Assembly: GCA_965224245.1 (NCBI GenBank)
Contig: OZ245046.1
Span: forward strand, 864,001-928,000
Direction: 5' to 3'
Source of the DNA: Candidatus Eiseniibacteriota bacterium
GTDB lineage: Bacteria > Eisenbacteria > RBG-16-71-46 > CAZAMP01
DNA length: 64,000 bases
Part shown: positions 14,813 to 58,743 of the stretch, piece by piece
How positions within the stretch are numbered: position 1 is the stretch's first letter
Layout of the letters: the number at the start of each line of letters is the position of its first letter
The notes under the pieces: model-generated
Told to the model about the DNA's origin: nothing
The model's database searches: none
Seen by the model: the letters and a program-made list of their open reading frames with translations, nothing else
Made by a program: the position numbers and the translations under genes

Positions 14813-14888
14813 GACCCGGTAGCTCAGGTGGTAGAGCAACGGCCTTTTAAGCCGTGGGTCCTGGGTTCGAGCCCCAGCCGGGTCACCA
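14813..14888 (+). tRNA. tRNA-Lys(UUU)
   Basis: Acceptor stem GACCCGG/CCGGGTC, anticodon arm ACGGC-CTTTTAA-GCCGT, GGTTCGA T-loop, encoded CCA, 76 nt. Confidence 0.97.
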
Positions 14889-15083
14889 ATGATGTGCTCG
14901 TATCGACTGTGATCGCAATAGGTTGTGGCGGTGCTGTGTCACGTCTACCGCTCTCCCACGCCCATCTAGCTACTTCCCGCCTGGATCTTCCGTTTCCTTT
15001 CCCGCCTGCCGATCAATTGAGGAGCCGGGCTGGTCCGTCAGGGGCCGGTTGGGGACGTCACGGTTCAACTCGTGGGAGAGCGC

Positions 15084-15395
15084 ATGCGAGATCCAGCAGA
15101 GGTGGTCAACGACATCGTGGGCGCGGTGAAGGAGCAGGGCATCTCGCAGGTGCCGGGCTACGTCCGCTTTGTCTATCGTCGGCAGACTCCCGCTTCGGTT
15201 GTCTTGGAGCGAAGGAACGGCAGAGATGTGGCAGTTCCCTTCTCGAAGCTTCGCACCGCGATCGAAGCAGTTCGAGAGGATCACTCTGTCTACATCTCCG
15301 GTCCACACTGCCTGCGAAAGTACGGCATCACGCACATCAACTCGCCCACGTGGTCACTGATCCGCCTGCTTCCCCTCAACAGATTGATCGACTAA
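15084..15395 (+). CDS. Hypothetical protein
   Basis: 103-aa ORF with plausible composition and GGGAG upstream. First gene after the tRNA. Confidence 0.55.
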   Translation: MRDPAEVVNDIVGAVKEQGISQVPGYVRFVYRRQTPASVVLERRNGRDVAVPFSKLRTAIEAVREDHSVYISGPHCLRKYGITHINSPTWSLIRLLPLNRLID

Positions 15396-15522
15396 GTTCG
15401 GATCGACGCGCCCCGCTCGGGCGCTTCACCGAGAGGATGAAGCGGCAAGGTTGTCACGGCGCTGATTGATGGACGGTGAACCTTGGTCGCGTCGATAGTC
15501 TCGGGGCTCGTCAGTGGAGGTG

Positions 15523-16418
15523 ATGGTGAGCGGTACCACGAGAAAAACGATATTCGAGCAGGCTTCGAGAAAGCTTCGTCAGGACTTCGACGAGTTATCG
15601 ATCGTCCCTCACAACGTATTGAAGGGCAGTGAAGCCGAGAAGCTAGTCCGTGATTTTCTGAGCGCACACTTGCCGAAACGATTTGGAGTCGGAGCTGGCT
15701 TCATCATCGACCCATCGGATGACGTCTCGAAACAGACGGACATCATCGTCTACGATGCCCTCAACTGTCCGATCTATCGCGCATCCGAGGACGCCTCGAT
15801 TTTTCCAAGCGATAATGTCGCTGCCGTAGTCGAAGTTAAGTCTCGGCTCACCACGGGTAGTCTCAAGAGCGCGTTTCTCAACCTCCGCAGAGCGAAGTCT
15901 CTGCGTAAGCGCGGAGCGGCATCGGACTGGGGACCGGAACGTACTCAAACGCTGGGGTGTGTGTTTGCATTCAAGAGTGACATCTCCGTCGAGAAGCTCG
16001 GTGAGCACTTTGCGAAGCAGACGAGAGAAGCTGGCCTAGGCCCCCATCCGGATCTTCTAGTGGTTCTGGACGAATGCGTTGTCATGATGGCGTGCAATCT
16101 TCCGAATCGCCCAGGCTGGAACCCTGTCTTCTTCGAGGGCTTCGGGGAGAAGACGCAGAAGGAGCTCACGTAGGCGTGGCTGTAGGCGAGACTGGTCTCG
16201 ACAGCCTCGACTACTTTCTACGTTTCTTCCTGGTCAATATCGCGAACTTTCGTCACACAATGGATGTTCCGCCGTTTGACTGGACATCGACGCCGTCTGA
16301 GGGGAAAGTGCAGATCACGTACCTCACCTCACTTACGAACGAGTCCGATCCAGCGAAGCGAGAGAGTAACCTCATTCGATATGCCGCAGCGGCGAAGAGA
16401 GACCTCGCCGCTCAATGA
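15523..16418 (+). pseudogene. DUF6602-like protein (PD-(D/E)XK-like), frameshifted near 16144-16147
   Basis: G..AE..VRDFL..HLP..FGV..GFIID...SKQTDIIVYD...VEVKS pattern. Reading continues in another frame (GEDAEGAHVG...) after a G4 run. Confidence 0.65.
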
Positions 16419-16550
16419 GCGCACGGAACTGATCGGCGAGCACCAATACGAGCGGCCCGGTCCGTGGAACGTGCCGAAGGGGAACTCGGAGGAGTGCCCG
16501 TTGCGGGCCAGTCGCTTCAAGGATCTGGGGCAGAAGACGACGGAGCAGCA

Positions 16551-17084
16551 TTAGCGAGTGGTCTCGAAGATTGATTCGAGCTTTCCGTTCACGCACGTGT
16601 AGCAGGTGGTTCGATTGTACGTCCAATACGTCCGCGAAACGTAGTTTTCAGCGCTGTAGGTGTCTGTGAGCTCGATCTCTCCTTTGAGAAGGGCCTGAAG
16701 GCAGAATTCGGAGATGCCGATCTTCAGCGCGGGGCAGAGTTCTCGAAGTCGTTTCGCATCTTCTTCTCTTTGCTTGTCGTTCTCTATTCGTTGGAGTCTT
16801 AGCTTCGCCTCGATCTCCGCTGCCTGTGCGTTTCGAACCGCCATCATGCTGTCGACATAGGCCGCTACGCTGTCCTGCTTGGCTTGTACCCGGGCCCGCT
16901 CTTTGGCTTCCCGAACGACCTGAAGAGCTTCAAGGCTATCCCGACGGGCGGCGAGCCGGAGCATCCGATCTTCGTGTGAGATTTGCGGGCTGCAAGACAC
17001 GACCGGCATGATCGAGATCAAGACAATCAGCCCAATCCTCGCCATGGCGGCTAATTGCACAGCGCTCACGGGCATCTTCTCCAA
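16551..17084 (-). CDS. Hypothetical exported/lipoprotein-like coiled-coil protein
   Basis: Hydrophobic N-terminus ending VVSC, charged helical middle. Start codon uncertain. Confidence 0.55.
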   Translation of the reverse strand: MEKMPVSAVQLAAMARIGLIVLISIMPVVSCSPQISHEDRMLRLAARRDSLEALQVVREAKERARVQAKQDSVAAYVDSMMAVRNAQAAEIEAKLRLQRIENDKQREEDAKRLRELCPALKIGISEFCLQALLKGEIELTDTYSAENYVSRTYWTYNRTTCYTCVNGKLESIFETTR

Positions 17085-17117
17085 GGAAGTTCAAAATCCT
17101 CGATCGTGTGGCTCGGA

Positions 17118-17282
17118 CCGGAGGTTTCCACGATGCCGTCTGGAACCACCGGGCCGTGCACGATGAGCTCCGCAAGCGACAAATCGAAGCGTTCAAAATC
17201 CTCGACGCCGGAGGTTTCCACGATGCCGTCTGGAACCACCGGGCCGTGCACGATGAGCTCCGCAAGCGACAAATCGAAGCGT
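17118..17282. repeat. Identical 75-bp direct repeat (17118-17192, 17208-17282)
   Basis: Read directly. Period is 90 nt, and GTTCAAAATCCTCGA precedes both copies. Confidence 0.9.
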
Positions 17283-17361
17283 GACGCCGCTGGTCGCGAT
17301 GAGACCCATGACCGTGAACCCGCGCAGCTCGCCTGACCTCCGTAACATGTTGCTCCACAAA

Positions 17362-17490
17362 CCGTTCTGGAGTCCATCGGAATCCGCGGGAGCAACGTCG
17401 GCGAGATACGCGGTCAGCTCCTCAATCACAAACCGCTTGATGTCGCCTGTCGGGATCGATTCGGTCGCACAGGCGTAGGACCCAAGGCCC
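17362..17490 (-). pseudogene. Relic of a large serine recombinase C-terminus
   Basis: ACATESIPTGDIKRFVIEELTAYLADVAPADSDGLQNG matches ACPTKSIPAGEIERFVIEELAGYLADVSPADADGLQNG of 19290-20555. Confidence 0.8.
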
Positions 17491-17771
17491 CGTCGTGGTC
17501 CGATGGGCGGGACCCCTGTCGTCCTACCGAACCGGATCGACGCACCGGCCAACGGTCCGGTGTCGTCAATCTATGTCCCAGATGGCCCAGGTGCCTACGT
17601 CCACCTCCTCCACGTGCTCTGCCAAGTCGCCCGGCTGCAATGGCTCGCCCCCGGGAGCATGGCGTTCCAAGAGGCTCGTCCGCCTCCCAAACCAGTAGCG
17701 ATCCCGTGAATATCAGAGCGGGGACCCGTGTACTATTGTTTACATGGATCAGCAATCTATCAGGGGGAACG

Positions 17772-18734
17772 ATGAGTGCTTCAACGCCTAACGGTTCGTC
17801 GGAGAAGCCTCGCGCATGGGGGCTGTTGAGTGCGCTTGGGAGGGCGGCGGGATGGGTGCGACGAAATCCGGACACGACGATTGCACTGTTTGCCGGCGTC
17901 ATGATTCCCTTGTCGATCTTCGTTGTCGGGGCTTGGACAATCAAGGCATCCTCACGCGCAGCACTTCTCACGCTCGCGATCTCCCAACTGGAGAGGCGCT
18001 CGTCGCCGCCGGAACTACGTTCTCTTGCTGTGGACATACTCCGCCGCCACTCTCTCCTGGACAACGAGGAACTCTTCGAACGGATCGAAGGAGGCGAACT
18101 GTATCTCCTGATGGACGAGAGCGAAAGGCTCGACGACCATCAGTATGAAATCGATCGACTAGCACTCCTGTACGAGCAGTGGTACAGCGTCGCAGCCAGT
18201 GGCGATAGCTCCGATGTCGCGCTCACCTACGCAGCAACCGTGGGTGATCACCTTGTCAGCGAGTGCACGTCTATGGAGCGACGGTTACGCCAGATCGACA
18301 GCAGCCTGCTTCGACAACGTCCAAACCAGGAACTGGGTCGCCATGTGTACCTCGCCATCGCTAACGCGATTCCTGCAATCGTCCTCTTTCATCGCGGCGA
18401 TGAGCGAGCCAGTCGCTACGCATTGGCCGTGCTGAGAAACTGTGAAGACGGCGCGACAGCGTGGCGCGACATATCCGTGCGCGCGCAGCGACTGGGCATT
18501 GAAACCTCTGCCTTCGTGAAACAGGAATGGTATACTCATGATGTTGAGAGCCAACGTGTTCAGTTGCTCGCTTACAAGGCTTACGCGCTCACCATCCTTT
18601 TCGATGGAGGCGAAACCAGCAAAGCGGAGGCGTGCAGCGCCATCAAGACTGTAGACGACGAGAGGTACTTTCCCAATCGACCAGGCGACAATGCCATCCT
18701 GATACCAGTTGTTGAGCAGCTCGGTTGTCCGTAA
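17772..18734 (+). CDS. Hypothetical membrane-anchored helical protein
   Basis: Long ORF, one TM segment (IALFAGVMIPLSIFVVGAW), GGGGGA upstream of ATG 17772. Confidence 0.6.
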   Translation: MSASTPNGSSEKPRAWGLLSALGRAAGWVRRNPDTTIALFAGVMIPLSIFVVGAWTIKASSRAALLTLAISQLERRSSPPELRSLAVDILRRHSLLDNEELFERIEGGELYLLMDESERLDDHQYEIDRLALLYEQWYSVAASGDSSDVALTYAATVGDHLVSECTSMERRLRQIDSSLLRQRPNQELGRHVYLAIANAIPAIVLFHRGDERASRYALAVLRNCEDGATAWRDISVRAQRLGIETSAFVKQEWYTHDVESQRVQLLAYKAYALTILFDGGETSKAEACSAIKTVDDERYFPNRPGDNAILIPVVEQLGCP

Positions 18735-18750
18735 ACGAAGGAGAACGACC

Positions 18751-18843
18751 ATGCGTAGCATGCTGACGGCGCTTCTTGGCGGCCTGTTCGTGGTGAGCAT
18801 CTTCATCGGTACGCATAGCGCGGCCTTGAGCCAATTGTCGTAG
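18751..18843 (+). CDS. 30-aa hydrophobic peptide MRSMLTALLGGLFVVSIFIGTHSAALSQLS
   Basis: Strong AAGGAG RBS upstream of the ATG, directly behind the previous gene. Below the ORF-track cutoff. Confidence 0.35.
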   Translation: MRSMLTALLGGLFVVSIFIGTHSAALSQLS

Positions 18844-18918
18844 GCGTCAGGGGGTCGCTTCGAAGACGCATCTGACGAGACCGATGGGCGGTTCGAGGTA
18901 CCAATCTCGGTACAACAC

Positions 18919-19293
18919 TCAGGCTACGAAGACGGGTTGGATCACCGATTGTTCGCGCCAGTCGGGAGCAGCGGCGATCATGAGCAAAGTCGGCTCGGGG
19001 ATTGCCACCTCTCCACAGAGCACACGCCGCTGGATCGCAGCGGATAGATCGAGCAATCGCAGAATCTGTGTCACCCGCGCCGGGGTGACCCCCGCGATCT
19101 TCGCTAGCCTCGTCTGAGTCGGCACATCACCGCTGGCGAGCAGTGCGTTCATCCGATGGGCAAGGGCGAGGAGTTCGGCGGCGCGGGTTGGACGTTCTCC
19201 TGAGACGATGTCAGGCTCGTCCCCACTGCGTAGGTCCCGCCGCCCATCACGCCCGTTGCCGATGTGAACGGCCCGGGAGACCCTGCGACTCAT
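18919..19293 (-). CDS. Small HTH-like protein coupled to the serine recombinase
   Basis: LAKIAGVTPARVTQILRL HTH pattern. 4-nt overlap with the recombinase stop. Confidence 0.7.
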   Translation of the reverse strand: MSRRVSRAVHIGNGRDGRRDLRSGDEPDIVSGERPTRAAELLALAHRMNALLASGDVPTQTRLAKIAGVTPARVTQILRLLDLSAAIQRRVLCGEVAIPEPTLLMIAAAPDWREQSVIQPVFVA

Positions 19294-20555
19294 GCCGTCT
19301 CATCTCGAAACGTGATCGTCACGCGACCGGCCCCGCGGTCGTAGACCACGCAATCGATCCAGCCGCGGACCACCGCAGCTCGCGAGCCGTTCTGGAGCCC
19401 GTCGGCGTCGGCAGGGGAGACATCGGCCAGGTACCCGGCCAACTCCTCGATCACGAACCGCTCGATCTCCCCGGCCGGGATCGACTTCGTCGGACAGGCG
19501 TCGAACCCGAAATCCTTCGTGGTCCGACAGACGTAGTAGCGATACCGACGTGGCCCTCTCGTCGTGTGCTTCGGCACCATGGCCTTGTCGCAGTGACCGC
19601 AGCGCAGGAGGCCGCGGAGCAGGGCAGGCGAGCTTCCGGTGATCGCACCGGTCAGGTCCGGGCCGTTGCGGCGTAGCTGGTCCTGGACGGCGGCGAACGT
19701 TGCCTCGTCCGCGATGGCGTCATGCTCGCCGTCGAGCACCTCGCCCTTGAACGCGACCTTCCCGATGTAGACGACGTTCTTGAGCGTCCGGTTGACCCAG
19801 TTCTTGGAGATGGGCTTGCCGCCGCAGCGGTTGCCGGTCTTGGAGGTCCACGCCTTCGTGGTCCAGCCTCGGCGGTGCAGTTCCTGGACGACGGGGAGGA
19901 TGGAGCCGAGGTCCAGGTAGAGGCGGAAGACCTCGACGACTTGCTTCGCCTCTTGGCGGTTGACCACGAGGCGACCGCCATCGGGGTGGACGTCGTAGCC
20001 GAGGGGAGGCGTGCCCCCGATCCACCTCCCGCGCCGCCGGGCTGCGTGAACCTTGTCCCGGACGCGCTCCCGGATGGTTTCCCGCTCGAACTCCGCGAAC
20101 CCGACGATCATGTGAAGCATCATCTTGCCTGCGGGCGTCGCGGTGTTGAAGTGCTCGGTGACGGAGACGAAGGTGACGCCGTGGCGGTCGAGTTCATCGG
20201 TGATGGCCAGGAAGTCGCGAGGAGATCGTGATAGCCGGTCATACCGGTACACCAGGACGCAGTCGACCTTCCCGGACCGCACGTCGTCCAGCAGCCGCTG
20301 GAGGGCAGGTCGCTTCAGGGTGGCTCCACTGATGCCCTCGTCGTCGTATCGGGTGGCGATCGCCTTCCAGCCCTTCTCCCGCTGACTCCGGATGTACGCC
20401 TCCACGCTCTCCCGCTGGTTGTCGATTGAGGTGAACTCCGAGCCGGAGCGGTCCTCGACGGACTGCCGGCAGTACACGGCGCACCGGACGGTCTCCGCCC
20501 GGGGCTTCGTGCCGTTCCACCCTCGGCGGACCTGGGTGTGGACTTGGAGGGTCAC
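19290..20555 (-). CDS. Large serine recombinase (resolvase + recombinase + Zn ribbon)
   Basis: AVYCRQS catalytic Ser, YDDEGISG, RPALQRLL, DRLSRS, GLLRCGHC...YYVC. Confidence 0.93.
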   Translation of the reverse strand: MTLQVHTQVRRGWNGTKPRAETVRCAVYCRQSVEDRSGSEFTSIDNQRESVEAYIRSQREKGWKAIATRYDDEGISGATLKRPALQRLLDDVRSGKVDCVLVYRYDRLSRSPRDFLAITDELDRHGVTFVSVTEHFNTATPAGKMMLHMIVGFAEFERETIRERVRDKVHAARRRGRWIGGTPPLGYDVHPDGGRLVVNRQEAKQVVEVFRLYLDLGSILPVVQELHRRGWTTKAWTSKTGNRCGGKPISKNWVNRTLKNVVYIGKVAFKGEVLDGEHDAIADEATFAAVQDQLRRNGPDLTGAITGSSPALLRGLLRCGHCDKAMVPKHTTRGPRRYRYYVCRTTKDFGFDACPTKSIPAGEIERFVIEELAGYLADVSPADADGLQNGSRAAVVRGWIDCVVYDRGAGRVTITFRDETA

Positions 20556-21049
20556 GGCTTGCCGGACTCCTTGATCTTGAAGAACCGGGGACCGGACAGA
20601 TGTTGGCCGGTGATCGCGCGTGCCACGGCCGTCAGCGACCGGTACACCTCACCCCCATACTCGAACTCCCCGCCATCAAGCACGACGACCTCGTGCACAC
20701 GGCCGCGATAGCGGCGCACGAGGCGCGTACCGGGGAGGAGGGCTCCGGGTTCGCGGGTCTGGTTGATCTCGCGGGACGTGGCCTGTGTGGGCGACGTGGG
20801 CGCGGTCGGGGGCCAGTCCTTGGGCGGGTTCAGCCGCACCACGGCATTCGCGGCGAGTTCCTGGATGCGGGCCTTGGCCCGCTCGCTCAACCCCCCGTGC
20901 GCCTGCTCCTGGATCCGCCAGGCAATCCTACGGATGAGCCATTTTCGATTGTGCGAGTGCGATTGATATCCCCACCGCTCTGTGAACTCGGCGACCAGCT
21001 CCTTTGTCGCCATGCCCTCCAATCTGGCAATCTCGCGCTTAATGTCCAA
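20552..21049 (-). CDS. DUF2924-type protein
   Basis: RRIAWRIQEQAHGGLS, PGTRLVRRYRG, YRSLTAVARAITG..SGPRFF. Likely TTG start at 21049 after GGAG. Overlaps the recombinase start. Confidence 0.82.
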   Translation of the reverse strand: MDIKREIARLEGMATKELVAEFTERWGYQSHSHNRKWLIRRIAWRIQEQAHGGLSERAKARIQELAANAVVRLNPPKDWPPTAPTSPTQATSREINQTREPGALLPGTRLVRRYRGRVHEVVVLDGGEFEYGGEVYRSLTAVARAITGQHLSGPRFFKIKESGKP

Positions 21050-21085
21050 CCAGGTCTCCAGGTCGGTGGTTTCAGTCCTGGGGGA

Positions 21086-21117
21086 CATGACCGCTCTCTC
21101 TGCCCGGGACATCAAGT
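21086..21117 (-). promoter_or_regulatory. Shared promoter-like motif ACTTGA..AGAG.G..CATG, upstream of DUF2924
   Basis: Similar sequences at 28892-28922 and 29727-29757 (minus) and 29768-29799 (plus). Confidence 0.45.
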
Positions 21118-21299
21118 GAATCCTCTCTGGTTTGTACAGCGGCGTATCGCGAGCGAGACGCCTATTCGCCCGGGCGAGGAGGGTGGTGAGGTCGCACGGC
21201 GGAGGTTGAGCGCGCCTGTCGGGGTTGATAGACACAGTTACTGCCCTCCCTACATGAAGAAGGGCGGGTTGAACCGTACCGGGTTCTCCGGAGAGCTGG

Positions 21300-22633
<1,334 letters not shown>

Positions 22634-22812
22634 GGAGGTATCCTCTCAAGGAATACACCCTCCGGCAAACCCGGCGTGGTTCATTCCCGCAGTTGAGAGC
22701 TTCGCCATCTGACCCACTCCACTGGTGGGCTGAGCGGGCCGTGATATCATTGAGGCGTCGTGAAGCCGCAAGAGGCCCGCCGAACGATCACATAGCGCCT
22801 GGAGGTGTTGGT

Positions 22813-26157: not shown

Positions 26158-26177
26158 ATCACACGTTTGGCGCCACA

Positions 26178-26220
26178 GTTCGAGCCCCAGCCGGACTACC
26201 ATTCGGTGAACGTGGGGTCG
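26178..26220 (+). repeat. tRNA-Lys 3' fragment / partial junction element
   Basis: GTTCGAGCCCCAGCCGGACTACCA matches tRNA 14865-14888 at 21 of 24 positions. Lies 20 nt after the CTD gene. Confidence 0.8.
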
Positions 26221-26319
26221 CGGCGCCTTACTTGAGTCACCCCAAGCGGTTACTGTAGAGAGACACCCCAGAGTTGAGCTAAGGCGACACCCAGATTTAC
26301 GCACTATCGCGTAAGTCCT

Positions 26320-28427: not shown

Positions 28428-28574
28428 CGGTGTCGCTTGCTGACTCCCGAGGGCCTGTAAGACGATGAAAGGAGAACCACTTATCCCGAACTCAGGTGCG
28501 TAAGACTGGGTGTCGCCTAAGTGCGTAACACTGGGTGTCGCTTGACACCGGGGAGAGAGGCGGGGGATGCAGTC

Positions 28575-31130: not shown

Positions 31131-31143
31131 TCTGGGGGACTCC

Positions 31144-34422: not shown

Positions 34423-34445
34423 AGCCGGGATCCGCGTGCCAGAGC

Positions 34446-45481: not shown

Positions 45482-45528
45482 TATGGAATGACCCTGTCAA
45501 GAGGCGAGTCTCTCCGGTCGGGAGGGGG

Positions 45529-47364: not shown

Positions 47365-47721
47365 ATGCTCTCGAAGTCGATCACGACCGCGCTCGCCCCG
47401 ATCTCCGACAACCGCTACTGGCGGGAGTCGGACGCGGAACGCGCACTTGCCATCTGGAGCCAGAGTGGGCTCACACTGAACGCCTTTGCGCGACAGTGTG
47501 GCCTCAGTGTGTCGCGACTGCGCCGCTGGAAGTCCAAGCTCGAGGCCGACGGCAGCCCCCGCTTCCACCCGGTCGAGATCGTGGAGACGGCTGACGCCGA
47601 CGTGGCCGACTCCGACGCCGGTATCGAGCTCATCGTCGGACAGCGCCACCGGATCGTCGTCCGCCGCGGCTTCGATCGCACGCTGCTACACGAGCTCATC
47701 GAGGCGCTCGATCCGTGCTGA
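47365..47721 (+). CDS. IS66 accessory protein TnpA
   Basis: SGLTLNAFARQCGLS HTH and position in the element. Confidence 0.8.
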   Translation: MLSKSITTALAPISDNRYWRESDAERALAIWSQSGLTLNAFARQCGLSVSRLRRWKSKLEADGSPRFHPVEIVETADADVADSDAGIELIVGQRHRIVVRRGFDRTLLHELIEALDPC

Positions 47722-48095
47722 CCCTGCCGCACACCGTGCGCATCTACATCGCCGCTGAGCCCGTCGATCTCCGCAAGGGCTTCGACGGGCTCTCGGCGGC
47801 CACGCGCGAGATCATCTCCGCCGATCCCCTCTCGGGACACCTGTTCGTGTTCATCAACCGGCGCGCGAACCGGATGAAGATCCTCGTCTGGCAGCCCTCG
47901 GGCTATCTCCTCGTCTACAAGCGCCTCGAACGCGGCCGCTTCACGCTCCCGCGCCACCCCGAGGTCGGGTCCTCGCACGTCGAGATCGAGTCGTCGGAGC
48001 TGACGTTGCTCCTGGATGGGATCGATCTTCGCGGCTCCCAGCGCCGGAGTCGCTGGTCGCCGAAGAAGGGACTTGCCTGGCGCGCGACGATGTGA
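47715..48095 (+). CDS. IS66 accessory protein TnpB
   Basis: VDLRKGFDGL, LFVFINR, KRLERGRF. Confidence 0.9.
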   Translation: MLTLPHTVRIYIAAEPVDLRKGFDGLSAATREIISADPLSGHLFVFINRRANRMKILVWQPSGYLLVYKRLERGRFTLPRHPEVGSSHVEIESSELTLLLDGIDLRGSQRRSRWSPKKGLAWRATM

Positions 48096-48107
48096 TTCAA
48101 AGAGTGC

Positions 48108-49721: not shown

Positions 49722-49833
49722 GCCTCACCCGACAGCGCGCCGGGACACGGGCTGATCACCCGGATGGGATGCCCGAACGGTTACTGTGATACGGCACTCG
49801 TGGTGCTGCGCGGGCTCACGGCAGCGGGATTTG

Positions 49834-50033
49834 GAGCCCCAGCCGGTCTCCCCGATATCGCTTGGGGCTCGAAAACATCTCTACCTCTCTGTTTGGAGTG
49901 ACGTTCGGTTGATCGCTGTAAGTTGTTGGTGGGGGGGTGTCGTGATCTTGGCGAGGGTCGGACGGAAGAGTTCGAACCGCCTCACTCGGGTCACCACTGA
50001 TGCGTCCGTAGCGGCTTTATCGGCCGCGGGCTA
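49834..50033 (+). repeat. Conserved junction element (att-like), full copy 2
   Basis: GAGCCCCAGCCGG...GGGGCTCGAA, ACCTCTCTGTTTGGA at 49883-49897, CGGGTCACCA at 49987-49996, weak 25-nt motif at 50009-50033. Confidence 0.8.
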
Positions 50034-51015
50034 CAGCCCTGACCGTCGACCCGTCAGCACCTTTCGCCCGAGCAGTGCACTCCACCAGCACGCTCTTCGT
50101 GCGATTCCCTCGAGCGGTCTCGTCGCCTCTCTTCTTGCTCTCCAGGCGGGAGCATCTGAGACCTATCCGTTCTCCCGGGAGTGGCCAGCGTCGAGCAACA
50201 TGCGCTCGATGCGCCAAGAGAACCGGAGCACTGCTACGGGGTGACCACGGAGCGAAGGGTCCACGTCGACGTCTCCAGTCGCAGCCGCGCGAAGTAGACA
50301 CCCGGAACGAGCTCGACCCCCGCCACGTTGACGAGACGCCCCTCCGGTCCGGTTCGTGGGACATCCTGCTCGTAGACACGTCTCCCCAGGACATCGAACA
50401 CTTCCAGCCGCCCGGTCGCGGAAACCCCTGGCAGAACCCGGTAGGAGAGGCTCGGGCCCGGATTGCGCGTTGCATGCAGCAGGGCCGGTCGCTGCGCGAT
50501 CCCGACGTCCGTATCCGAGGTCGAGAGAAGCGCCTGCGGTCCCCGGAACAGCACCTCGCTCAGCCCCACGTATTCGGCGGCCAGGCCACTGTGCGCGCTG
50601 TCTGTGTCGAACTTGACCAGTCGGACTCCCGTTGCCTGGAAGGAGACGAGCTGCGCCGGCTCTGCGGGTCCGCCCGCCGCGACGTCGAGCGTGAACACGT
50701 CGACGGGGTCGCGGTCAGAGGATCCAGGTCGCTCGACACCAGGAGCCGAAAGCTGGCCACACCACGGTCTTCCAGGGCCGACTGATTGTGGTTCCAGATG
50801 TAGGCTCCGAGGAGATCGTATTCAGCACCGAGGTCGAAGATGAGTGCCTGTTCGTCGACCGCCGGCGGAGTCCCGACAGGGCCTCCGAGGCCACCATCGA
50901 CATCACCCGCGTGCCACATCGTTGCGGCACTGGCATCGTCGTCGTGTGTCCATGTCTCTACCGGTCCAGCACCGGACAGTCCGCTACCGTTGATGAGATT
51001 GATGGCGCGTCCATC

Positions 51016-52264
51016 TGGAGTTGACCCGGTTTCGTGGACACCAAGCCCTTACAATGGGGCGAGGAGGTCCCGATGCCAAGATCCCGTCGATCGTACCCGC
51101 CTGAGTTCCGCCGCCAGCTGATCGAGCTGGTCCGTGCCGGACGAACCCCCGAGTCTCTCGCCCGTGAGTTCGAACCGTCGGCCGGGGCGATCCGGAACTG
51201 GGTCAGACAGGCCGATCTCGATGAAGGCCGCCGGGAGGACGGTGTGACCAGCGAGGAGCGAGAGGAACTCACCCGCCTGCGCCGTGAGAACCGGCAGCTT
51301 CGTGAAGAGCGGGAGATTCTAAAAAAAGCCGCGGCCTGGTTCGCTCGGGAGACCGAGTCAACGCCCCCGAAGCGTTCGCGTTCGTGAAGGCGAATCGGGC
51401 CGACCACGCGGTGCGCACGATGTGCCGAGTGCTGGGCGTCTCCACCAGCGGGTACTACGCGTGGCTTGATCGTCCCCTCAGCAACCGGGCACGGGAGGAT
51501 GCGGTCTTGCTGGAGATGATCGAGGAGTTCCACACGCGATCGGATGGGACCTATGGCGTTCCCCGCATCCACCAGGATCTGATCGATGAGGACATCTTCG
51601 TGGGAAAGAAGCGGGTTGGGCGCTTGATGCGCCTCAAGCAGCTCCAGGGCGTTCATCGACGGGCTCGGAGACGGACCACGATCCGTGGCGATGAACCCCC
51701 GTCTCAGGATCTGGTGAACCGGCGCTTCGAAGCCGACGGACCCGATCAGCTCTGGGTGGCGGACATCACCTACGTGCCGACCTGGGTGGGCTTTCTGTTC
51801 CTGGCCGTGGTGCTCGACGCGTGGAGTCGGCGCGTGGTGGGCTGGGCCATGGCCTCGCACCTGCGATCGGAGCTGGTTCTCGAGGCCCTGGAGATGGCCC
51901 TTCATCGCCGCCGTCCCGAGAACGTGATCCATCACTCCGACCAGGGGTGTCAGTACACGTCCTACGCCTTCGGAAAGCGTTGTCGGCAAGCCGGCGTGCG
52001 CCCCTCGATGGGATCGGTGGGCGACTGCTACGACAACGCTATGTGCGAGAGCTTCTTCGCCACACTGGAGTGCGAGCTCATCGAGCGCCGCACCTTCCGG
52101 AACCGGACCGATGCGAGGCGAGAGCTGTTCCAGTTCATCGAGGGGTGGTACAACCCTCATCGTCGTCACTCCGCCTTGGGGTATCGTTCACCCATGGCGT
52201 TCGAGGCGGCTCAGCTCGAGCCGATCCTCACATGAAACCTGTCCACCGAAGCGGGGCAACTCCA
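51016..52264 (+). mobile_element. IS3-family element with A7G frameshift signal
   Basis: IRs TGGAGTTGACCCG / CGGGGCAACTCCA, 3-bp duplication ATC, AAAAAAAG at 51321-51328. Confidence 0.93.
51073..52235 (+). CDS. IS3 transposase OrfA (51073-51387) / OrfB (to 52235), -1 frameshift fusion
   Basis: YPPEFRR, EREILKKAA, WVADITY, HHSDQGCQY, YDNAMCESFF. Confidence 0.9.
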
Positions 52265-52472
52265 ATCCGTTTCCCCGCCGCCCCATTCCGACGTACTCAG
52301 CACCTCGACCGGCGCGATGACGAGCGAGGGTTCTTGGGGGACACACTCGACATAAGCGGGTGTGAAGTCACTGATGTCCACGAGATCTAGTCCGCCGCTC
52401 CGTCCGTCAAAGTTAGACGTGGCGACGAATGCGTATCCCGACAACGTGGGATCGTCGCAGGCTGCAATCGGT

Positions 52473-53825
52473 GGATCCGTCCCGAGTCCTGTGGAAAAAC
52501 GAAAATGGCGTAACCTCCTGGTTGCCAAACCAGACCGCCCACCGGGCGAGGAGGAAACGCCATGGCTCAGTCTACCACCGCTCCGTCCCAACTTCCCGTC
52601 CGTCACGTCGTTCGTGAGCTTCTCCAGCAGCGGATCGCACAGGTCGTCGAGGTCGTGATCGAGGAGGAGCTGTCGGAGCTTCTCGGGTCTTCTCGATACC
52701 AGCGGACCGATGAGCGTCGAGGCTATCGGAACGGGCGAACGTCGCGAACGATCACGACGGAGTCCGGTCCGATGGAGATCTCGGTTCCCAGGGCTCGCGT
52801 CCGCGACGAGTCGGGGAACACCACCGAGTTCACGAGCGAGATCCTGCCCCGCTACGCCCGTCGTACCCGCCGGGTCGACGACGCCATCCTCGGGGTGTAT
52901 CTCGCCGGCGCGAACAGTCGACGTATCCGCAAGGCGCTTCTGCCGCTTCTTGGCGAAGCGAACCTCTCGAAGAGCGCCGTTTCTCGGGTCGTATCTCGAC
53001 TCAAGGCGCTGTTCCAGAGCTGGAGCGAGCGGGACCTGAGCGAGGAGACCTATCCGATCGTCATGCTCGATGCGATCCACCTGAAGGTGCGGCTGGCTCG
53101 CCGGGTGGTGAGCGTGCCGGTCCTGGTGGTGATGGGCGTCGATGAGGCCGGAAACAAGCGCCTGGTGGCGCTTCGACTCGCCGCCAGCGAGGCGGCGACG
53201 AACTGGGGCGCGGTGATCGAGGACCTTGGGGCTCGCGGACTCCCGAGTCCTGAGCTGATCATCAGCGACGGTCACAAAGGACTGCTTCGCGCGGTTGCGC
53301 TCTGGCCCGAAGCTGGCGTTCAGCGGTGCACGGTTCACAAGCGTGCGAATCTCGAGGCGTGCTGTCCGGTCCATGCCCGGCCTGAGCTCGCCCGCGACTA
53401 CCACGCGATCGTCATGGCCACCTCGGCCATGGACGCACGAGGGGCGTACGACGCGTTCCTGGGTAAGTGGCGGACGCTCTGTCCGGCCGTCGCGAGAAGT
53501 CTCGAGGAGGTGGGGCATCAGCTCCTCACGTTCTACGAGTTCCCCAAGCCGATGTGGAAGTCGCTGCGATCGACCAACTCGATCGAGAATCTGAACCGAG
53601 AGTTCCGCCGGCGGACCAAGACCCAAGCGTCGTTCTCGACCGAAGAGGCGGCGCTGACGTTGCTCTACGGTCTCGTTGCGTTCGGTCAGATCAAGATGCG
53701 CAAGATCAACGGACACCAGCACGTGGCCACGATCTCGGCTCGGAGGTGCCGAGACGCCGCGTAACGCGCTACTATCACGCAATCAGGAGGGCGCTACGCT
53801 TTTCCACAACAATCGGGACGCATCC
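52473..53825 (+). mobile_element. IS256-family element, copy 2 (inverted relative to copy 1)
   Basis: Same 1353-bp length and same 400-aa transposase. Flanks CAATCGGT / CAATCGCA form an imperfect duplication. Confidence 0.93.
52562..53764 (+). CDS. IS256 transposase
   Basis: Translation identical to 45590-46792. Confidence 0.93.
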   Translation: MAQSTTAPSQLPVRHVVRELLQQRIAQVVEVVIEEELSELLGSSRYQRTDERRGYRNGRTSRTITTESGPMEISVPRARVRDESGNTTEFTSEILPRYARRTRRVDDAILGVYLAGANSRRIRKALLPLLGEANLSKSAVSRVVSRLKALFQSWSERDLSEETYPIVMLDAIHLKVRLARRVVSVPVLVVMGVDEAGNKRLVALRLAASEAATNWGAVIEDLGARGLPSPELIISDGHKGLLRAVALWPEAGVQRCTVHKRANLEACCPVHARPELARDYHAIVMATSAMDARGAYDAFLGKWRTLCPAVARSLEEVGHQLLTFYEFPKPMWKSLRSTNSIENLNREFRRRTKTQASFSTEEAALTLLYGLVAFGQIKMRKINGHQHVATISARRCRDAA

Positions 53826-55217
53826 CAATCGCATATCCGCCTGCGCTCAGGGTTGTAGACCCCACCATCGTCGGGGTCTGGGGACTACTGATGTCGATGA
53901 CATCCAAGGTGCCGGCACTACTGGGCAAGGAAGCGGTTGCGACGTACGCATGAGTGCCGGCGAGTGCAATTGAACGTCCGCCCAGGTTAAGTGAAATGTT
54001 TATGTAGGGGAGGGGATTCAAGGGATTACTGATGTCGATCGGCGTGAAGTAGCCCGCGTCCTCATAGAGTTCATCGAAATCGGTAGAGGCGACAAAGAGG
54101 GTGTTGTCACAACCGGCGATCGCGCGCGCTCCAACGCCTAGATCGATTGATGCGACGATCACCGGATCGAGTGGGTCCGCGATGTCCACGACCACGAGTG
54201 CTCCTGTATCCCAGTCAACGGGGTCGACGTCTGCCGTGCCAATGTATGCGAAGTCGCCGACAACGGTGACCGCATGCCCTCCGTAGGGAAGATCGATGGA
54301 ACCTAGAGATACGGGGCTGAACGGGTCCTGGATGTCGATGATGTGGAAGGTGCCCGCATCCCAGCCTCCGTAGTTGACGTCCGCGGTCACGACGTAGGCA
54401 TGGAGATCGTCCTCGCTCAGGTCGACGGCACGGGCGCCCCAGGGAAGATTTACCGTCGATCCACTACTGAATGGAGGAGCCGCCCATATCACGTGAAAGC
54501 TGCCATAGTCTGGTCCGTTGGCCTCGACTTCCGAGAGTGCCATGAAGGCGTAGCGATCTCCATACACCTCCAAGATCTCCAGATCGTGAACTCCGTCGTG
54601 TTGACCAATGAAATGCGGGTAGTAGTTGTCATCACTCTCGAGAAACGTCGGATCGGAGATGTCCCAGACTTGATAATGGCCGCGATCGGTTCCTCCGTGT
54701 ACGTCGATCTCCGTCATGCCAAGGAACAACTCCAAGCCGACCACGTCCATGGCACGTCCGCCTCGTTCGAGGTCGTAGGTCGCCAGGACCTCGAATGCGT
54801 ACGACGTGCGGAGGGCCAGGGGAATGCCGATCAGGGTGAAGCAGAGTACAACGACACATCGTGCAAGCAGACTCGACCGTCGGGCCCGAGTCACGGAGAG
54901 TTGATCAGCCAAGCGTGGCAACCTGGCTCCGGAGCTCGCTCGTATCGAACCAAGTGCTGCACTCGGCATATCGTGCACTCCTCTGGGGGAAACCGTTGAT
55001 GGGTCTACAGACTGGACCGGCTGGGCGGCCTCAGATCAGCGGAGTATACTGCACTCGGTAATCGATGGTGCGGAACCGGGTGTCGCCCAGTCGCAGGGCT
55101 GACGGCTCCGGTGGAGCTCACCTGTCCGCGGTGATCGGTCCATCCGGAGTCTCGGTTCTTAGGCCATGCTCAGTGCCGGCCTGGGTTCGATGGCCTCCGG
55201 TGCCGGAGGCTGATGAC

Positions 55218-55350
55218 AGGAAGCGAACCGGCTTCGGGCCAGGGCGAAAGCGGCCGTCACAGAGGCCAAGACGGCCTACCGGATCGCCCACGCGGCCTAC
55301 CGCGATGCGTGCCGCCGGGCCAGGGTGGGCTGCGAGTTCGCACGGGGGCG
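55218..55350 (+). pseudogene. Relic copy of the 29828-30280 gene
   Basis: CTTCGGGCCAGGGCGAAAGCGGCCGTCACAGA...CCTACCGGATCGCCCAC...CTGCGAGTTCGC shared with ~29916-30049. Confidence 0.8.
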
Positions 55351-55814
55351 ACCATCGTGGACGGTCAGCGTTGCGCGTTCGTAACCGTTGCCCGTCCACT
55401 CCCGGCCCTCTGCGCGCGACTCAGCGAGTGATGGGCAGTTCAGTGTCCACCGATTGCAGACCACATGGTCTCGATCGGTTTTCGGATGCTGGTGTGTCCA
55501 GCGAAGGTCGGCGCGTTCAGTGCGGGAACACTGCCCGGAGTTCCCGGAGTCGCCACTCTTGATCACCCGACGTACAATCTTCCGCCGACGGCACCGGCCG
55601 CGGATCTGGCCTCGATCCTCGTGATTGCTGTATGATCGGGCCCCAGCCACAACTTCCAGATACGCTTCGTGCTCGCCGCGATCTCCGGTCGCTCGCGTTC
55701 GTGGCGAAGCTCGGTCGTTGAGGTTTGACCCCCGTACCCCGGCGGCGTGATGCGCGGCCGCGATCCCATCGTGAGGTACGGCATCGAGACCACACGCCAA
55801 CCGGGAGGCGAGCC

Positions 55815-58520
55815 TTGCGCGATCACATCGAGAAGACACGTTCGGTCACACTCTCGGGCACATCGTCGTTCATGACCGGGCTCCTGATCCTGGCCGCGGC
55901 ACTCGTTCCGATCGCACCGTCGTTTGCCGATCCTCCACCTCAGATCGACGTCACAAACCCCGCCAACTCGTCGGATGTCATTCTCGACCGTCTGCCCGCA
56001 CATGCCGGAGCGGTCACGCATCGCGTAGAAGCCCCTCGGACGCTGCGGATCGACACGAGCACCGGTGTCTCGACCTGGGTATCGGACGACCCGAGCCTGG
56101 CGGACCGGCAGGACCCGGTGGGTCGGGGCGCCGCCACGCCGGTGTACGCCAACGACACGACCGAGCTGGCCGCGTATGTCATCCCCGGAGTGACGACGGG
56201 CGTCGTGTTCGGGGACTGGGTCAATCTGATCGAGCCGGGGAGGGTCGACGCGTGCCAGATAACCGTCTACAACGACCCCGGCTCCCCCGGGGCGCTCCTC
56301 ACGGCGACGGTGCGGGTGAGTTTCTACGATGCCAACGACTGGCCGACCTTTCCCGTGGGGTACCCGGCCACGCTGCTCGGCTCCTTCGACTACGACGTGG
56401 ACTTCGGAGCCGGCCTGTCGCCGTCGGCCACGACCATCGTTGCCCTTACCGATCTGGTCGCTTCGGGGACTGACATCTACTTGCCGACGAACATCGTGGT
56501 GGTGCAGCAGATCGTGTCGTTCACGGGCGACGTGACCGGCATCGGGATCGCGTTCTACGATCCTCCATCGATCGGCTACAGCGATGGCAGCAGCTGGTTC
56601 GTTGCGGCCGAAGGAATCGGCATCCCCTCGGGTCTCTACGGCGCCCTCTCGGGCCTGTATGGAAATCTCGGCTACCGCATCGGTCTGGAGCCGCCGGGGG
56701 GCGACGTGCTTCACGACCAGTCGGACTTCGTCGTCGGGGGCCCCGTCTTCACCGACTACTGGGGTCTCGCCAGTGGCATTCCCGGTCTCAGCGATGTCAC
56801 GGTTGACGGCGACGGCTGGAACATCGAACGCATCACCAGCTACTACGCGCTCGACCATCCCGAATGGGGTGGAAGCGTGACTGGGGGCTACGTCAGCGTG
56901 TTCCAGAAGACCGGCCCGCTGCCACTGTGGCCGGACCACAATCCCCATGACAGCCCGCTTGTCCCGATGTCCGCGTCGAACGCCGGTGACCACTGGGTCG
57001 TCACGGCCTCGGCACTGGACATCGACCTGGCACCGGGCGAGTACTGGATCGGCATCACGCCGATATCTGTCTATTCGCCCGACCGACGCCTGTCGTCCGG
57101 CACGTTTCTGGGCCATGCAACGGCGACGTGGCATGAGGGGTTCGGCACTCCCCCGTTCGGGGAGCCCCCGTACTGGTACAACGAACATCCAGGTGTGGAT
57201 GCGGCCATGCTGATCCGGGGCACCCGGCTGTGTACCTCGCCCCACATCGAAGTGGACACCACGTACTTCAACTTTGATCTGAACTTCAACGACGCGATCG
57301 CCTTCCAGCTCCCCATCAGCAACGAGAACGGCTGCTCGACACTGGACTACGAGGTCACCGGAAGCTGCCCGATAGGAACTGCGTCGGGATCGATCCCGGC
57401 CGGTGAGGTGGGTGGGCCGTGGCTCGTGATCGACCCGTTCGGGTATGCGCCGGGATCGTATACCTGCTGGCTTCAGGTGGACTCGAACGACCCGTACACC
57501 CCACTGGTCCTGGTCCAGGTCGACTTCACGCTCAACGGCACGATCTCCGATGCGGTCCCCGGGGTGCTGTACGCCACCCAGGGCACGGGCGGGATCAGCC
57601 AGTGGGTGGAGATCGATCCGCTCACCGGGGCCGGTACGGTCTCCGGATCGACGGGGCGTCTGCCGGACGATCTGACCGTCGACGGCGACGGTCGTCTCTG
57701 GGCCGCCTACACTGGCTACATCTACCGCGTCGACTCCGCAAGTGGCGCGATGGTCCGGCTCGGACTGACCGGCATGGAGACGCTCGCGAGCCACGAGGGC
57801 TTTCTCTACGGTCTCGACGTGGCCAACCAGGTGTGGCAGTTCAACCTCGACACCTACGAACAGCTCGGTCCGCTGGCGACCGTGACGCCCCACATGGACG
57901 GGTGTGCGATCGACCCGACCACTGGCATCATGTACCTGACGCCGTCCGGTGCGGGACCCGGCTCGGACACGCTCTACATGCTCGACCTTCCCGGACTCGG
58001 TGACGAAGCTGTGGCCGTGGGCCCGCTCGGGTACGGGGAGCCGATCGGCGACATCGCGTTCGACGGTCAGGGCAACCTGTTCGGCGTCATCGGTGGGGCG
58101 GGGCCGACGACGCTGGTCACGATCGACAAGACGACCGGGCTCGCCGACGACATCGGGGTGGTCGGTGTCGATCACCTGTCCGGGCTCGCGATGATCGGCA
58201 GCGGGCTTCTGAGCGCCCCGAGCGACGAGGTGTCGAGCCCGACGGCCGCCTCGTTCCGCGCGGCGTCGCCGAACCCGTTCCGCGGTGGCACGTCTCTGTC
58301 GTTCGGGTTGCCCGAGGCCGGACCCGTGAGGCTCGTCATCTTCGACGCGACCGGCCGCGAGGTACGGACCCTGGTCGATGGAACCTACCCTGCCGCCGCG
58401 CACCGCGTGGTCTGGGACGGCCGCGATCTGTCGGGGCGGACCGTGGCGCCCGGGATCTACTTCGCTCGGATCCGGGCAGGGGAGTACGAGTCGGTCCAGC
58501 GACTCACGCTGATTCGGTGA
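55815..58520 (+). CDS. Secreted multidomain protein with beta-propeller-like repeats and FlgD-Ig/T9SS-type CTD
   Basis: Signal peptide ending SFA, DP.TG/DIAFD repeats, PNPF...FDATGR...WDGRD..G..VAPGIYF. Start is TTG 55815 or ATG 55872. Confidence 0.82.
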   Translation: MRDHIEKTRSVTLSGTSSFMTGLLILAAALVPIAPSFADPPPQIDVTNPANSSDVILDRLPAHAGAVTHRVEAPRTLRIDTSTGVSTWVSDDPSLADRQDPVGRGAATPVYANDTTELAAYVIPGVTTGVVFGDWVNLIEPGRVDACQITVYNDPGSPGALLTATVRVSFYDANDWPTFPVGYPATLLGSFDYDVDFGAGLSPSATTIVALTDLVASGTDIYLPTNIVVVQQIVSFTGDVTGIGIAFYDPPSIGYSDGSSWFVAAEGIGIPSGLYGALSGLYGNLGYRIGLEPPGGDVLHDQSDFVVGGPVFTDYWGLASGIPGLSDVTVDGDGWNIERITSYYALDHPEWGGSVTGGYVSVFQKTGPLPLWPDHNPHDSPLVPMSASNAGDHWVVTASALDIDLAPGEYWIGITPISVYSPDRRLSSGTFLGHATATWHEGFGTPPFGEPPYWYNEHPGVDAAMLIRGTRLCTSPHIEVDTTYFNFDLNFNDAIAFQLPISNENGCSTLDYEVTGSCPIGTASGSIPAGEVGGPWLVIDPFGYAPGSYTCWLQVDSNDPYTPLVLVQVDFTLNGTISDAVPGVLYATQGTGGISQWVEIDPLTGAGTVSGSTGRLPDDLTVDGDGRLWAAYTGYIYRVDSASGAMVRLGLTGMETLASHEGFLYGLDVANQVWQFNLDTYEQLGPLATVTPHMDGCAIDPTTGIMYLTPSGAGPGSDTLYMLDLPGLGDEAVAVGPLGYGEPIGDIAFDGQGNLFGVIGGAGPTTLVTIDKTTGLADDIGVVGVDHLSGLAMIGSGLLSAPSDEVSSPTAASFRAASPNPFRGGTSLSFGLPEAGPVRLVIFDATGREVRTLVDGTYPAAAHRVVWDGRDLSGRTVAPGIYFARIRAGEYESVQRLTLIR

Positions 58521-58542
58521 GAAAGGCGACACGCAGCTAGAT

Positions 58543-58743
58543 GGGTTCGAGCCCCGCAGGGACATCCGGCTGGGGCTCGAAGACCTCTCCACCTCTCTGT
58601 TTGGAGCGGTGTTCGATTGGTCCCGGCAAACGACTTGAGAGGTAGGGGACTGTGGGCTCAATGCCCCGACCCAGCCTGACAGTTTGGCCCGCCTCGTTCG
58701 GGTCACCATGCCCTACCTCAACATGCTTTATTGCAATGAGTTA
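58543..58743 (+). repeat. Conserved junction element (att-like), full copy 3
   Basis: GGGTTCGAGCCCC...CCGGCTGGGGCTCGAA, ACCTCTCTGTTTGGA at 58591-58605, CGGGTCACCA at 58699-58708, 25-nt motif at 58719-58743. Confidence 0.82.

Follow-up and report, generated by a model that had tools for sequence, protein, structure and literature searches.

Probable tandem accretion of integrative elements at the 3' end of a tRNA-Lys gene in a Candidatus Eiseniibacteriota genome

This analysis concerns a stretch of 64,000 nucleotides (the window) from a Candidatus Eiseniibacteriota bacterium (GenBank contig OZ245046.1), corresponding to C1:864001-928000 in a genome of 6.9 Mb on 27 contigs. Plain positions are those of the window; the prefix C1 refers to contig C1. 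The window harbours a tRNA-Lys(UUU) gene, present as a single copy in this genome, followed by a row of units that are separated by a conserved junction resembling the 3' end of this tRNA. It is likely that integrative elements accumulated here in tandem by site-specific insertion into the 3' end of tRNA-Lys(UUU), the internal junctions being attP-like fusions of an attR and an attL site. Integrative elements would have entered one after another by site-specific recombination at this single target. The attachment-site core CGGGTCACCA of each incoming element would rebuild the last 10 nt of the tRNA, so that each internal junction would consist of the right arm of one element (hairpin, box and ~100 nt), the core, and the left arm of the next element. 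Most units would by now have become recombinase-less, resembling cis-mobilizable elements (CIMEs), and have been colonised by insertion sequences (IS). As it stands, the tRNA-Lys array is probably a fossil or dependent on an outside helper.

Junctions downstream of tRNA-Lys(UUU)

A preliminary description of this DNA had reported three full copies and one partial copy of an element with the fixed order hairpin, box and core. Exact matches bear this out. The 15-nt box ACCTCTCTGTTTGGA is found at 34490, 49883 and 58591, and the 10-nt core at 14879, which is the tRNA end, and at 34598, 49987 and 58699; three box matches and four core matches were each reached in 0 of 100 shuffles. The core is identical to the last 10 nt of tRNA-Lys (14879-14888) and in the full junctions J34, J49 and J58 it ends 103, 99 and 103 nt past the box, spacings that had been given before and that follow from the coordinates. 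According to ARAGORN, with which Rfam concurs, tRNA-Lys(UUU) is the only tRNA in the window. The intact target tRNA thus stands at one end of the array, and direct repeats of its 3' end lie downstream, on the same strand, at the unit boundaries.

The full junctions are pairwise 55-57% identical (125-130 of 227-229 aligned positions, from the hairpin to ~45 nt past CCA). Invariant columns number 91 of 240, with runs of 15 (the box), 10 (the core), 9 (GGGCTCGAA) and 7 (GAGCCCC), the last two of which are hairpin arms. Judged from this alignment, the conservation is a block-wise constraint and not the trace of a recent duplication. An exact core within junctions of such low identity would be expected under accretion, because each integration must rebuild a working single-copy tRNA. 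The preliminary description had proposed that each junction is an attR/attL fusion, and this fits: the core is exactly what an incoming element must supply to rebuild the tRNA.

Resemblance to the tRNA extends beyond the core. The left arm and loop of the hairpin repeat the last 24 nt of the tRNA in degenerate form, with 13-21 of 24 positions matching in eight of the nine junctions compared; J49, the ninth, has 10 of 24 when scored out of register and 17 of 24 after re-alignment by eye. In the partial junction J26 the match is 21 of 24, 17 of them in one exact run. The 20-30 nt ahead of the core resemble a diverged T-arm. The string GAGCCCCAGCCGG, which spans the T-stem and acceptor of tRNA-Lys, occurs five times in the genome, four times within the array, and a genome search found the long-loop form of the hairpin in the array only. 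On the other side of the core, a right-arm motif of ~45 nt is common to the three full junctions. Past ~45 nt the right flanks of the cores have nothing alike (tBLASTx and BLASTN gave noise only) and therefore hold no shared left-end gene or integrase relic.

The distribution of the junction was analysed with nhmmer, using a profile built from the three full junctions against the whole 6.9-Mb genome (E <= 10). The 13 rows obtained represent the three full copies, six further copies, the tRNA itself and three reverse-strand rows, which are palindromic hairpins of copies already listed. The six further junctions lie beyond the window on the + strand, at C1:936415, 957272, 978563, 987784, 1001948 and 1019983; they score 12-54 bits and are decayed. 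Every junction copy matched by the profile is on the strand of the tRNA, downstream of it and at most 141 kb away, and no match was found outside C1:878871-1020062 across the 6.9 Mb. The array has at least 10 junctions spanning 141 kb. Derivation of the junctions from the tRNA-Lys 3' end, with one orientation and confinement downstream, is in this way supported by both profile and string searches, and a scatter of the element through the genome away from tRNA-Lys, which had been considered beforehand, was not seen. The three intact junctions sit 20-44 kb from the tRNA; the rest are decayed or damaged, with no simple gradient of distance. A weak match (24.7 bits, E 6.5e-4) to a covariance model of hairpin and box was noted far from the array, at C1:37539-37634.

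Contigs from four sequencing runs of one sample, in which rare variants are dropped, were inspected over 39950-59900. At J49 and J58 they read straight through with no change in sequence, and none of their joints falls at a core; those listed have sides of 20-29 letters and lie at other places. No sign of present mobility was seen in these contigs.

Beyond this genome the junction was not recovered. The covariance model gave only weak matches, of at most 30 bits, in 150 other genomes of the phylum. Nine of these were read and represent coding sequence or generic GC-rich hairpins, three of the nine beside tRNA-fMet and none with the box. A hairpin rich in GC (TCGAGCCCCGGCAGG...CCTGCCGGGGCTC) and similar to the hairpin arms of the array adjoins a convergent initiator tRNA-Met gene in three of the other genomes. 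Metagenome scans with the box plus GTTCG, or with the hairpin plus part of the box, returned 0 matches, and a pattern search at family level did not find the box in the one other genome of the family. The bare 15-nt box was rejected as a search key across genomes, since its matches, at least 118 in unrelated phyla and one per record, are about the number expected by chance.

Units, cargo and the locus in relatives

The gene content of the array was derived from Pfam scans of the open reading frames (ORFs) of the window and from a repeat map against its own genome (Table 1). Cargo of neighbouring units is not paralogous, in agreement with the earlier notion of units of ~8-15 kb that differ in content, and most array proteins have their best paralog in another part of the genome, above all at 6.14-6.41 Mb and 1.74-1.81 Mb of C1. 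In these two regions, paralogs of the extracytoplasmic function (ECF) sigma factor, the Ser/Thr kinase-WD40 protein and the LVIVD secreted proteins form clusters. The best paralog of the protein encoded at 30910-34422, for instance, is at C1:6405771-6409151 (72% identical). BLASTN of unit 1 against the genome revealed relatives for the recombinase gene only.

Table 1 Features of the tRNA-Lys array in the window (HTH, helix-turn-helix)
Feature	Position	Strand	Remarks
tRNA-Lys(UUU)	14813-14888	+	ARAGORN; Rfam tRNA 70.7 bits; anchor of the array
Unit 1	14889-26177	+	11.3 kb; DUF6602 gene, unknown ORFs, HTH/serine recombinase/DUF2924 module, IS3, secreted protein (Pfam, IS map)
Small HTH gene (ParB-HTH-like)	18919-19293	-	4-nt overlap with recombinase gene, as in the tRNA-Asn element
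Large serine recombinase gene	19290-20555	-	Resolvase, Recombinase and Zn ribbon domains; only complete-looking site-specific recombinase in the array
DUF2924 gene	20552-21235	-	Upstream of serine recombinase; paralogous pair on contig C23
IS3-family element	21267-22685	-	ALIL frameshift pseudoknot at 22239-22355; 7 matching pieces elsewhere in the genome
FG-GAP/beta-helix secreted protein gene	22686-26157	+	FlgD_ig-type C-terminal domain; 5' end runs into IS3
Partial junction J26	26178-26251	+	Copy of tRNA-Lys 3' end, imperfect hairpin; no box, no exact core
IS21 (IstA/IstB)	26252-28547	+	Abuts J26; no target-site duplication; cuts into tyrosine recombinase gene
Tyrosine recombinase fragment	28573-28875	-	First half of catalytic domain; interrupted by IS21
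Gene X'	29828-30280	+	54-66% identical to gene divergent from short tyrosine recombinase on C18, C22, C23
LVIVD-repeat secreted protein gene	30910-34422	+	FlgD_ig C-terminal domain; last gene of unit 2
Junction J34	34444-34652	+	Hairpin 34444-34481, box 34490-34504, core 34598-34607, right arm to ~34652
Unit 3	34608-49996		Bounded by exact cores of J34/J49; no recombinase
Cargo of unit 3	34783-45481	+	778-aa unknown protein, ECF sigma factor, Ser/Thr kinase-WD40, LVIVD/FlgD_ig protein
ECF sigma factor gene, unit 3	37245-37847	-	Pfam
Ser/Thr kinase-WD40 gene, unit 3	37876-41973		Pfam
LVIVD/FlgD_ig protein gene, unit 3	42230-45481		Pfam
IS256-family element, unit 3	45528-46881	-	Target duplication GGAGGGG
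IS66-family element, unit 3	47288-49784	+	Target duplication TGTGATAC
Junction J49	49830-50041	+	Hairpin 49830-49874, box 49883-49897, core 49987-49996, right arm to ~50041
Unit 4	49997-58708		Bounded by exact cores of J49/J58; IS3-like, IS256, LVIVD fragment, 931-aa secreted protein; no recombinase
IS3-like element, unit 4	51016-52264	+	Pfam, IS map
Second IS256 copy, unit 4	52468-53826	+	Pfam, IS map
931-aa secreted protein gene	55725-58520	+	FlgD_ig C-terminal domain; last gene of unit 4; stop 23 nt before J58 hairpin
Junction J58	58544-58753	+	Hairpin 58544-58581, box 58591-58605, core 58699-58708, right arm to ~58753
Start of unit 5	59041-64000		Unit continues to decayed junction C1:936415
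Ser/Thr kinase gene, unit 5	59041-61956	+	
ECF sigma factor gene, unit 5	61977-62726	-	
Secreted protein gene with sorting tail, unit 5	62723 onwards	-	

Units 3 and 4 have an exact core, a predicted att site, at each end and encode neither a tyrosine nor a serine recombinase, and there is no space for a recombinase gene at either end. Their earlier designation as non-autonomous is therefore apt. Indeed, a Pfam search of 19 ORFs identified only DDE transposases (IS256 twice, IS66 and IS3) among genes of recombinase type. Scans of the genome place one of 24 PF00589 matches and one of 13 PF00239 matches in the array, both before 34607, so the initial statement that no site-specific recombinase is encoded after this position in the window holds. 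Neither the minus-strand ORFs right of each core nor the ORFs between purA and the tRNA encode a recombinase according to Pfam, and no conjugation genes were found among the window ORFs scanned. The units are heavily invaded by insertion sequences, one of which, the IS21, probably removed the remainder of J26. Beyond the window, two adjacent short repeats of 221 and 182 bp were noted at C1:930814-931276 (equivalent to 66814-67276 of the window), for each of which the genome has 9 matching pieces at other places; together they have the appearance of a miniature mobile element.

In relatives, purA is directly upstream of tRNA-Lys in 11 of the 14 loci fetched, the other three representing the neighbourhood of tRNA-Lys(CUU), and ychF is directly downstream in five of these 11 purA loci. 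On this comparison the order purA-tRNA-Lys-ychF is presumed to be the empty state of the site. The genome studied here has unrelated cargo at this place, and its synteny with the relatives breaks at the tRNA. Its ychF is 1.7 Mb from tRNA-Lys (C1:2611300-2613300), just behind genes that we take to be phoU and a pstB-like gene, a position suggestive of a large rearrangement, one break point of which would lie behind tRNA-Lys. Upstream of the tRNA, the ~5.4 kb between purA and tRNA-Lys (9434-14812) is absent in relatives. It contains a Ser/Thr kinase-PD40 gene at 12022-14661, a minus-strand ORF at ~10523-12028 that is suggested by codon-position GC and has no Pfam match, and, just after purA (9587-9871), a tandem 17-nt repeat (CACCCGGGTGCAACGAA) of ~16 copies with 83% matches.

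Recombinases and a second array at tRNA-Asn

The large serine recombinase of unit 1 is 48% identical to a 561-aa enzyme over residues 14-378, plus the last 22 residues. This longer enzyme is encoded in a second tRNA-anchored array of the same genome, which was found via recombinase homologues. It starts at tRNA-Asn(GUU) (C1:6096072-6096146) and extends over C1:6096072-6193517. Its core GGGGAGCCA equals the last 9 nt of the tRNA, and a profile of its junctions finds internal copies at ~6127071 and ~6193340 of C1. Here the cores have arms on both sides: a right arm of ~220 nt in the junctions also follows the genuine tRNA-Asn, while the left arms are alike mutually and unlike the tRNA. Read from these sequences, the tRNA-Asn array has the textbook attL and attP-like pattern.

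Unit 1 of the tRNA-Asn array is prophage-like and 31 kb long. Besides a 198-aa tyrosine recombinase and an HlyIII protein, its products include a secreted protein bearing a sorting tail, a small HTH protein whose gene overlaps that of the 561-aa large serine recombinase, and an ECF-sigma-like protein. Furthermore, it carries genes for AAA_24, an ERCC4 nuclease, a D5-type primase-helicase, a D12 methyltransferase, ParB_N and a terminase fragment. Unit 2, of 66 kb, has no recombinase in PF00589 and PF00239 scans and includes paralogs of tRNA-Lys cargo. The DNA directly after tRNA-Asn is 85-94% identical to at least 10 small contigs; contigs with this identity to the element are C2, C3, C5, C6, C9, C10, C11, C15, C18, C22, C23 and C27, several of which carry the module of gene X, short tyrosine recombinase, HTH and serine recombinase. 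They may represent copies that were left unplaced, or else related elements from other strains present in the sample. By the same sequence comparisons, the tRNA-Asn array appears fresher and better preserved than the tRNA-Lys array. Ordinary-looking islands with 12-nt repeats of the 3' end of their target were also observed in this genome, at C1:1407069-1418056 and C1:3189400-3198192. The targets of 12-nt-repeat islands are tRNA-Arg(CCG), the transfer-messenger RNA (tmRNA) gene, whose 3' end is overlapped by a gene for a 445-aa integrase, and tRNA-Lys(CUU).

The HTH/serine recombinase/DUF2924 module of unit 1 is, by sequence, homologous to that of the tRNA-Asn element, which counts in favour of accretion at tRNA-Lys. 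Homologues of the serine recombinase (E <= 1e-30) were found in 28 of 150 other genomes sampled from the phylum. Neighbourhoods of up to 20 kb on each side were analysed with ARAGORN for ten of the best matches, one per genome. In six of the ten, the sole tRNA is tRNA-Asn(GUU), located 1.0-6.1 kb from the recombinase gene on the same strand; no tRNA was found in the other four, three of which are on contigs shorter than 32 kb. The six loci did not show repeats of the tRNA-Asn 3' end within the stretches fetched. The remaining site-specific recombinase of the array, the tyrosine recombinase fragment of Table 1, is 64-70% identical at amino acid level to short enzymes of ~197 aa of prophage-like elements on the small contigs, and a search for longer relatives gave none.

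The serine recombinase family goes with tRNA genes in these genomes, much as the CcrB-like enzyme of Dehalococcoides goes with ssrA (McMurdie et al. 2011; PMC3146451). Because of this tie it is the best candidate for the enzyme that built the array. A lost tyrosine integrase has roughly even odds with it, because the conserved arms are long.

Weighing of the explanations and comparison with known systems

Several observations weigh against accretion in its simple form. No recombinase was found that is tied to the tRNA-Lys core. The serine recombinase of unit 1 is without ~110 residues (420-531 of its 561-aa paralog), a stretch which we take to be the coiled-coil needed for synapsis in large serine integrases; it is therefore probably crippled. 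The tyrosine piece is, by its similarities, a broken homologue of the short ~197-aa enzyme and not a classical tRNA integrase. A serine integrase typically works on sites of just ~50 bp, versus a conserved junction of ~210 bp here. Each junction has two tRNA-derived segments, the hairpin and the core, ~150 nt apart, a duality not expected from simple accretion; an ancestor may have captured an older attR with its flank through imprecise excision. The genuine tRNA-Lys flank scores 0.4 bits against a profile of the junction right arm, which is not significant, so the point of crossover is placed from the core alone. An impression that this flank carries the right arm of the junction was ruled out by the right-arm-only profile. 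From these comparisons unit 1 seems to be a different element, having only the core in common with the others.

The state of the junctions is also not as expected from simple accretion, as decay does not track distance: the copy at 109 kb scores 54 bits versus 30 and 36 bits for those at 58 and 78 kb (nhmmer), and the junction nearest the tRNA, J26, is damaged. The latter requires an IS21-linked deletion, as the missing target duplication suggests. Finally, kinase genes of the cargo families are also present between purA and tRNA-Lys, which means that not all such genes arrived through the core.

Could the recombinase-less units still be mobile? The preliminary description had viewed the array as integron-like, with cassettes mobilised in trans. 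In such an active platform a recombinase supplied from elsewhere would move the units through their cores and the tRNA would act like the attI site of an integron. Units 3 and 4, which have an exact core at each end and no space there for a recombinase gene, are compatible with this, as are the block-wise conservation of box and core, which points to constraint, and the presence in the same assembly of related prophage-like elements with intact serine and tyrosine recombinases. However, the genome profile search found no junction-like attachment site beside any intact recombinase of the assembly, the recombinases of the related elements go with tRNA-Asn and not with tRNA-Lys, and the units are riddled with insertion sequences. 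Present-day activity of this kind is therefore considered unlikely. A bolder version, in which the tRNA-Lys and tRNA-Asn arrays are both platforms kept by the host, is given little credence. Here regulatory modules, each with an ECF sigma factor, a Ser/Thr kinase and a secreted surface protein, would be inserted, excised and reordered via the cores by phage-type large serine recombinases supplied in trans, and the hairpin-box arm would be a recognition or accessory site. If true, the platform would work like an integron for whole signalling modules.

In an integron, units line up in one direction from a fixed entry site, and each closes with a conserved, imperfect hairpin that follows a stop codon. 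The tRNA-Lys array is similar in its one-directional units behind a fixed entry and in the hairpin just past a stop codon. The comparison goes no further: no IntI-type integrase is present beside the tRNA or upstream of it, there are no attC-like sites and the hairpin arms do not fit the attC core GTTRRRY. Moreover, the units are 8-15 kb long and multi-gene with their own sigma factors and kinases, and the predicted crossover is ~150 nt beyond the hairpin. The label integron-like is thus an overstatement.

The place of the hairpins behind genes bears on another explanation, in-situ segmental duplication. In six of ten junctions the hairpin is preceded, at a distance of 19-23 nt, by the stop codon of a secreted-protein gene on the + strand. 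The secreted-protein genes preceding junctions have a common C-terminal FlgD_ig or sorting-type domain, and the DNA likeness upstream of the junctions is the C-terminus of this protein family; the protein of 22686-26157, for example, ends in GVYFLRMEAGEFRADRRLVVLE and its stop codon, 21 nt ahead of the J26 hairpin. One old intergenic region behind such a gene, containing an attR, might have been copied by unequal crossing-over, after which the flanking genes were replaced or diverged, and the junctions would never have been independent integration sites. That some array proteins are mutual best paralogs (e.g. those of 55725-58520 and C1:933619-936258, 54%) and that no working recombinase is present would agree with this. 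Most neighbouring cargo is not paralogous within the array, however. Furthermore, drift after duplication does not predict junctions in which the tRNA 10-mer and the 15-nt box are exact while overall identity is 55-57%, and the array of like architecture at tRNA-Asn still has a mobile element attached to it. Duplication in situ is therefore an improbable origin.

It was also considered whether the hairpin and pyrimidine-rich box form a terminator or a signal in the 3' untranslated region, the right arm being the promoter of the next gene and the tRNA resemblance being incidental or ancient, without a role in recombination. Hairpin and box are kept in decayed copies that are without the core (J957, J936, J1020 and J978), the J978 hairpin is between convergent genes, a single sigma-70-like promoter match was found in the right arm of J58, and the GC-rich hairpins beside tRNA-fMet in other genomes of the phylum are similar. 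The junction does not behave as a structured or tRNA-like RNA, however: Rfam has no family on it at gathering or permissive thresholds, the three full junctions fold no better than shuffles (z -0.6 to -1.6), the same is true of their consensus fold with the exception of the first hairpin, and a promoter and terminator scan detected no terminator-type site or U tract in the junctions. As hairpin and box are also missing behind all nine other paralogous secreted-protein genes (five elsewhere in the genome, four in the array region), in spite of the same coding end, and as the restriction of the element to DNA behind tRNA-Lys and its exact 10-nt tRNA end are left unexplained, this cis-regulatory role is very improbable.

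Tandem accretion at tRNA-Lys is further favoured, by analogy, by three described precedents with the same layout (PMC3146451; PMC5704250; bioRxiv 10.1101/2020.12.28.424599). The ssrA islands of Dehalococcoides lie in tandem within ~100 kb downstream of the tmRNA gene and are delimited by directly repeated copies of its 3' end, of 20 bp each, with ~85 bp conserved; a six-gene integration module is retained in sixteen islands, while many islands without such a module were read as cis-mobilizable elements (McMurdie et al. 2011; PMC3146451). The tRNA-Lys array resembles them in its tandem units, 3'-end repeats with extra conserved sequence, cargo that differs per unit and a large serine recombinase module that lies near attL in reverse orientation. 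It differs in its target, tRNA-Lys, in the 10-nt core within a ~210-bp junction that has a second tRNA-derived palindrome, and in its one shortened recombinase.

For streptococci, accretion is described in three steps: integration, decay that keeps attL and attR without the integrase, and insertion of a next element alongside. The same review mentions that in S. agalactiae a composite island occupies the tRNA-Lys 3' end (PMC5704250). The layout of these tandem integrative and conjugative elements, integrative and mobilizable elements and CIMEs is similar to that of the present array. The streptococcal arrays consist of two or three elements with tyrosine integrases and conjugation, in contrast to at least 10 junctions here and no conjugation genes seen by Pfam. 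The tycheposons of Prochlorococcus target tRNAs and combine cargo with a primase/helicase module for replication and a recombinase of the tyrosine or large serine type; they integrate repeatedly, push older ones inward and leave partial tRNAs and broken integrases (bioRxiv 10.1101/2020.12.28.424599). The likeness to what is described there is one of layout only, the tRNA-Asn element having a D5-type primase-helicase with a serine recombinase. Unlike tycheposons as described, the cargo here consists of signalling and secreted-protein genes, and the tRNA-Lys array is without a replication module. Islander (PMC4383910) defines island ends by a regenerated tRNA and a displaced 3' fragment and recognises tandem arrays. 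Among 3919 islands it lists 125 tandems of at least two and only four of at least three, because an integrase is demanded per member, a filter which the tRNA-Lys array would fail. Therefore, the earlier statement that the junction is not from a described system stands for its sequence and not for its kind, since tandem accretion, CIMEs, ssrA genomic islands and tycheposon islands are on record. The tRNA-Lys array matches the known layout of accretion, with a junction sequence not previously described and no new principle.

The finding concerns a little-known phylum and an array in which almost no working recombinase is left. In the Eisenbacteria, known only from metagenomes, large families of sigma factors, kinases and secreted proteins are partly stockpiled in tRNA-anchored mobile stacks. 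The large serine recombinase family that accompanies tRNA genes is the likely driver. That this genome has both a decayed and a fresher array provides material for the question how recombinase-less blocks persist or move.

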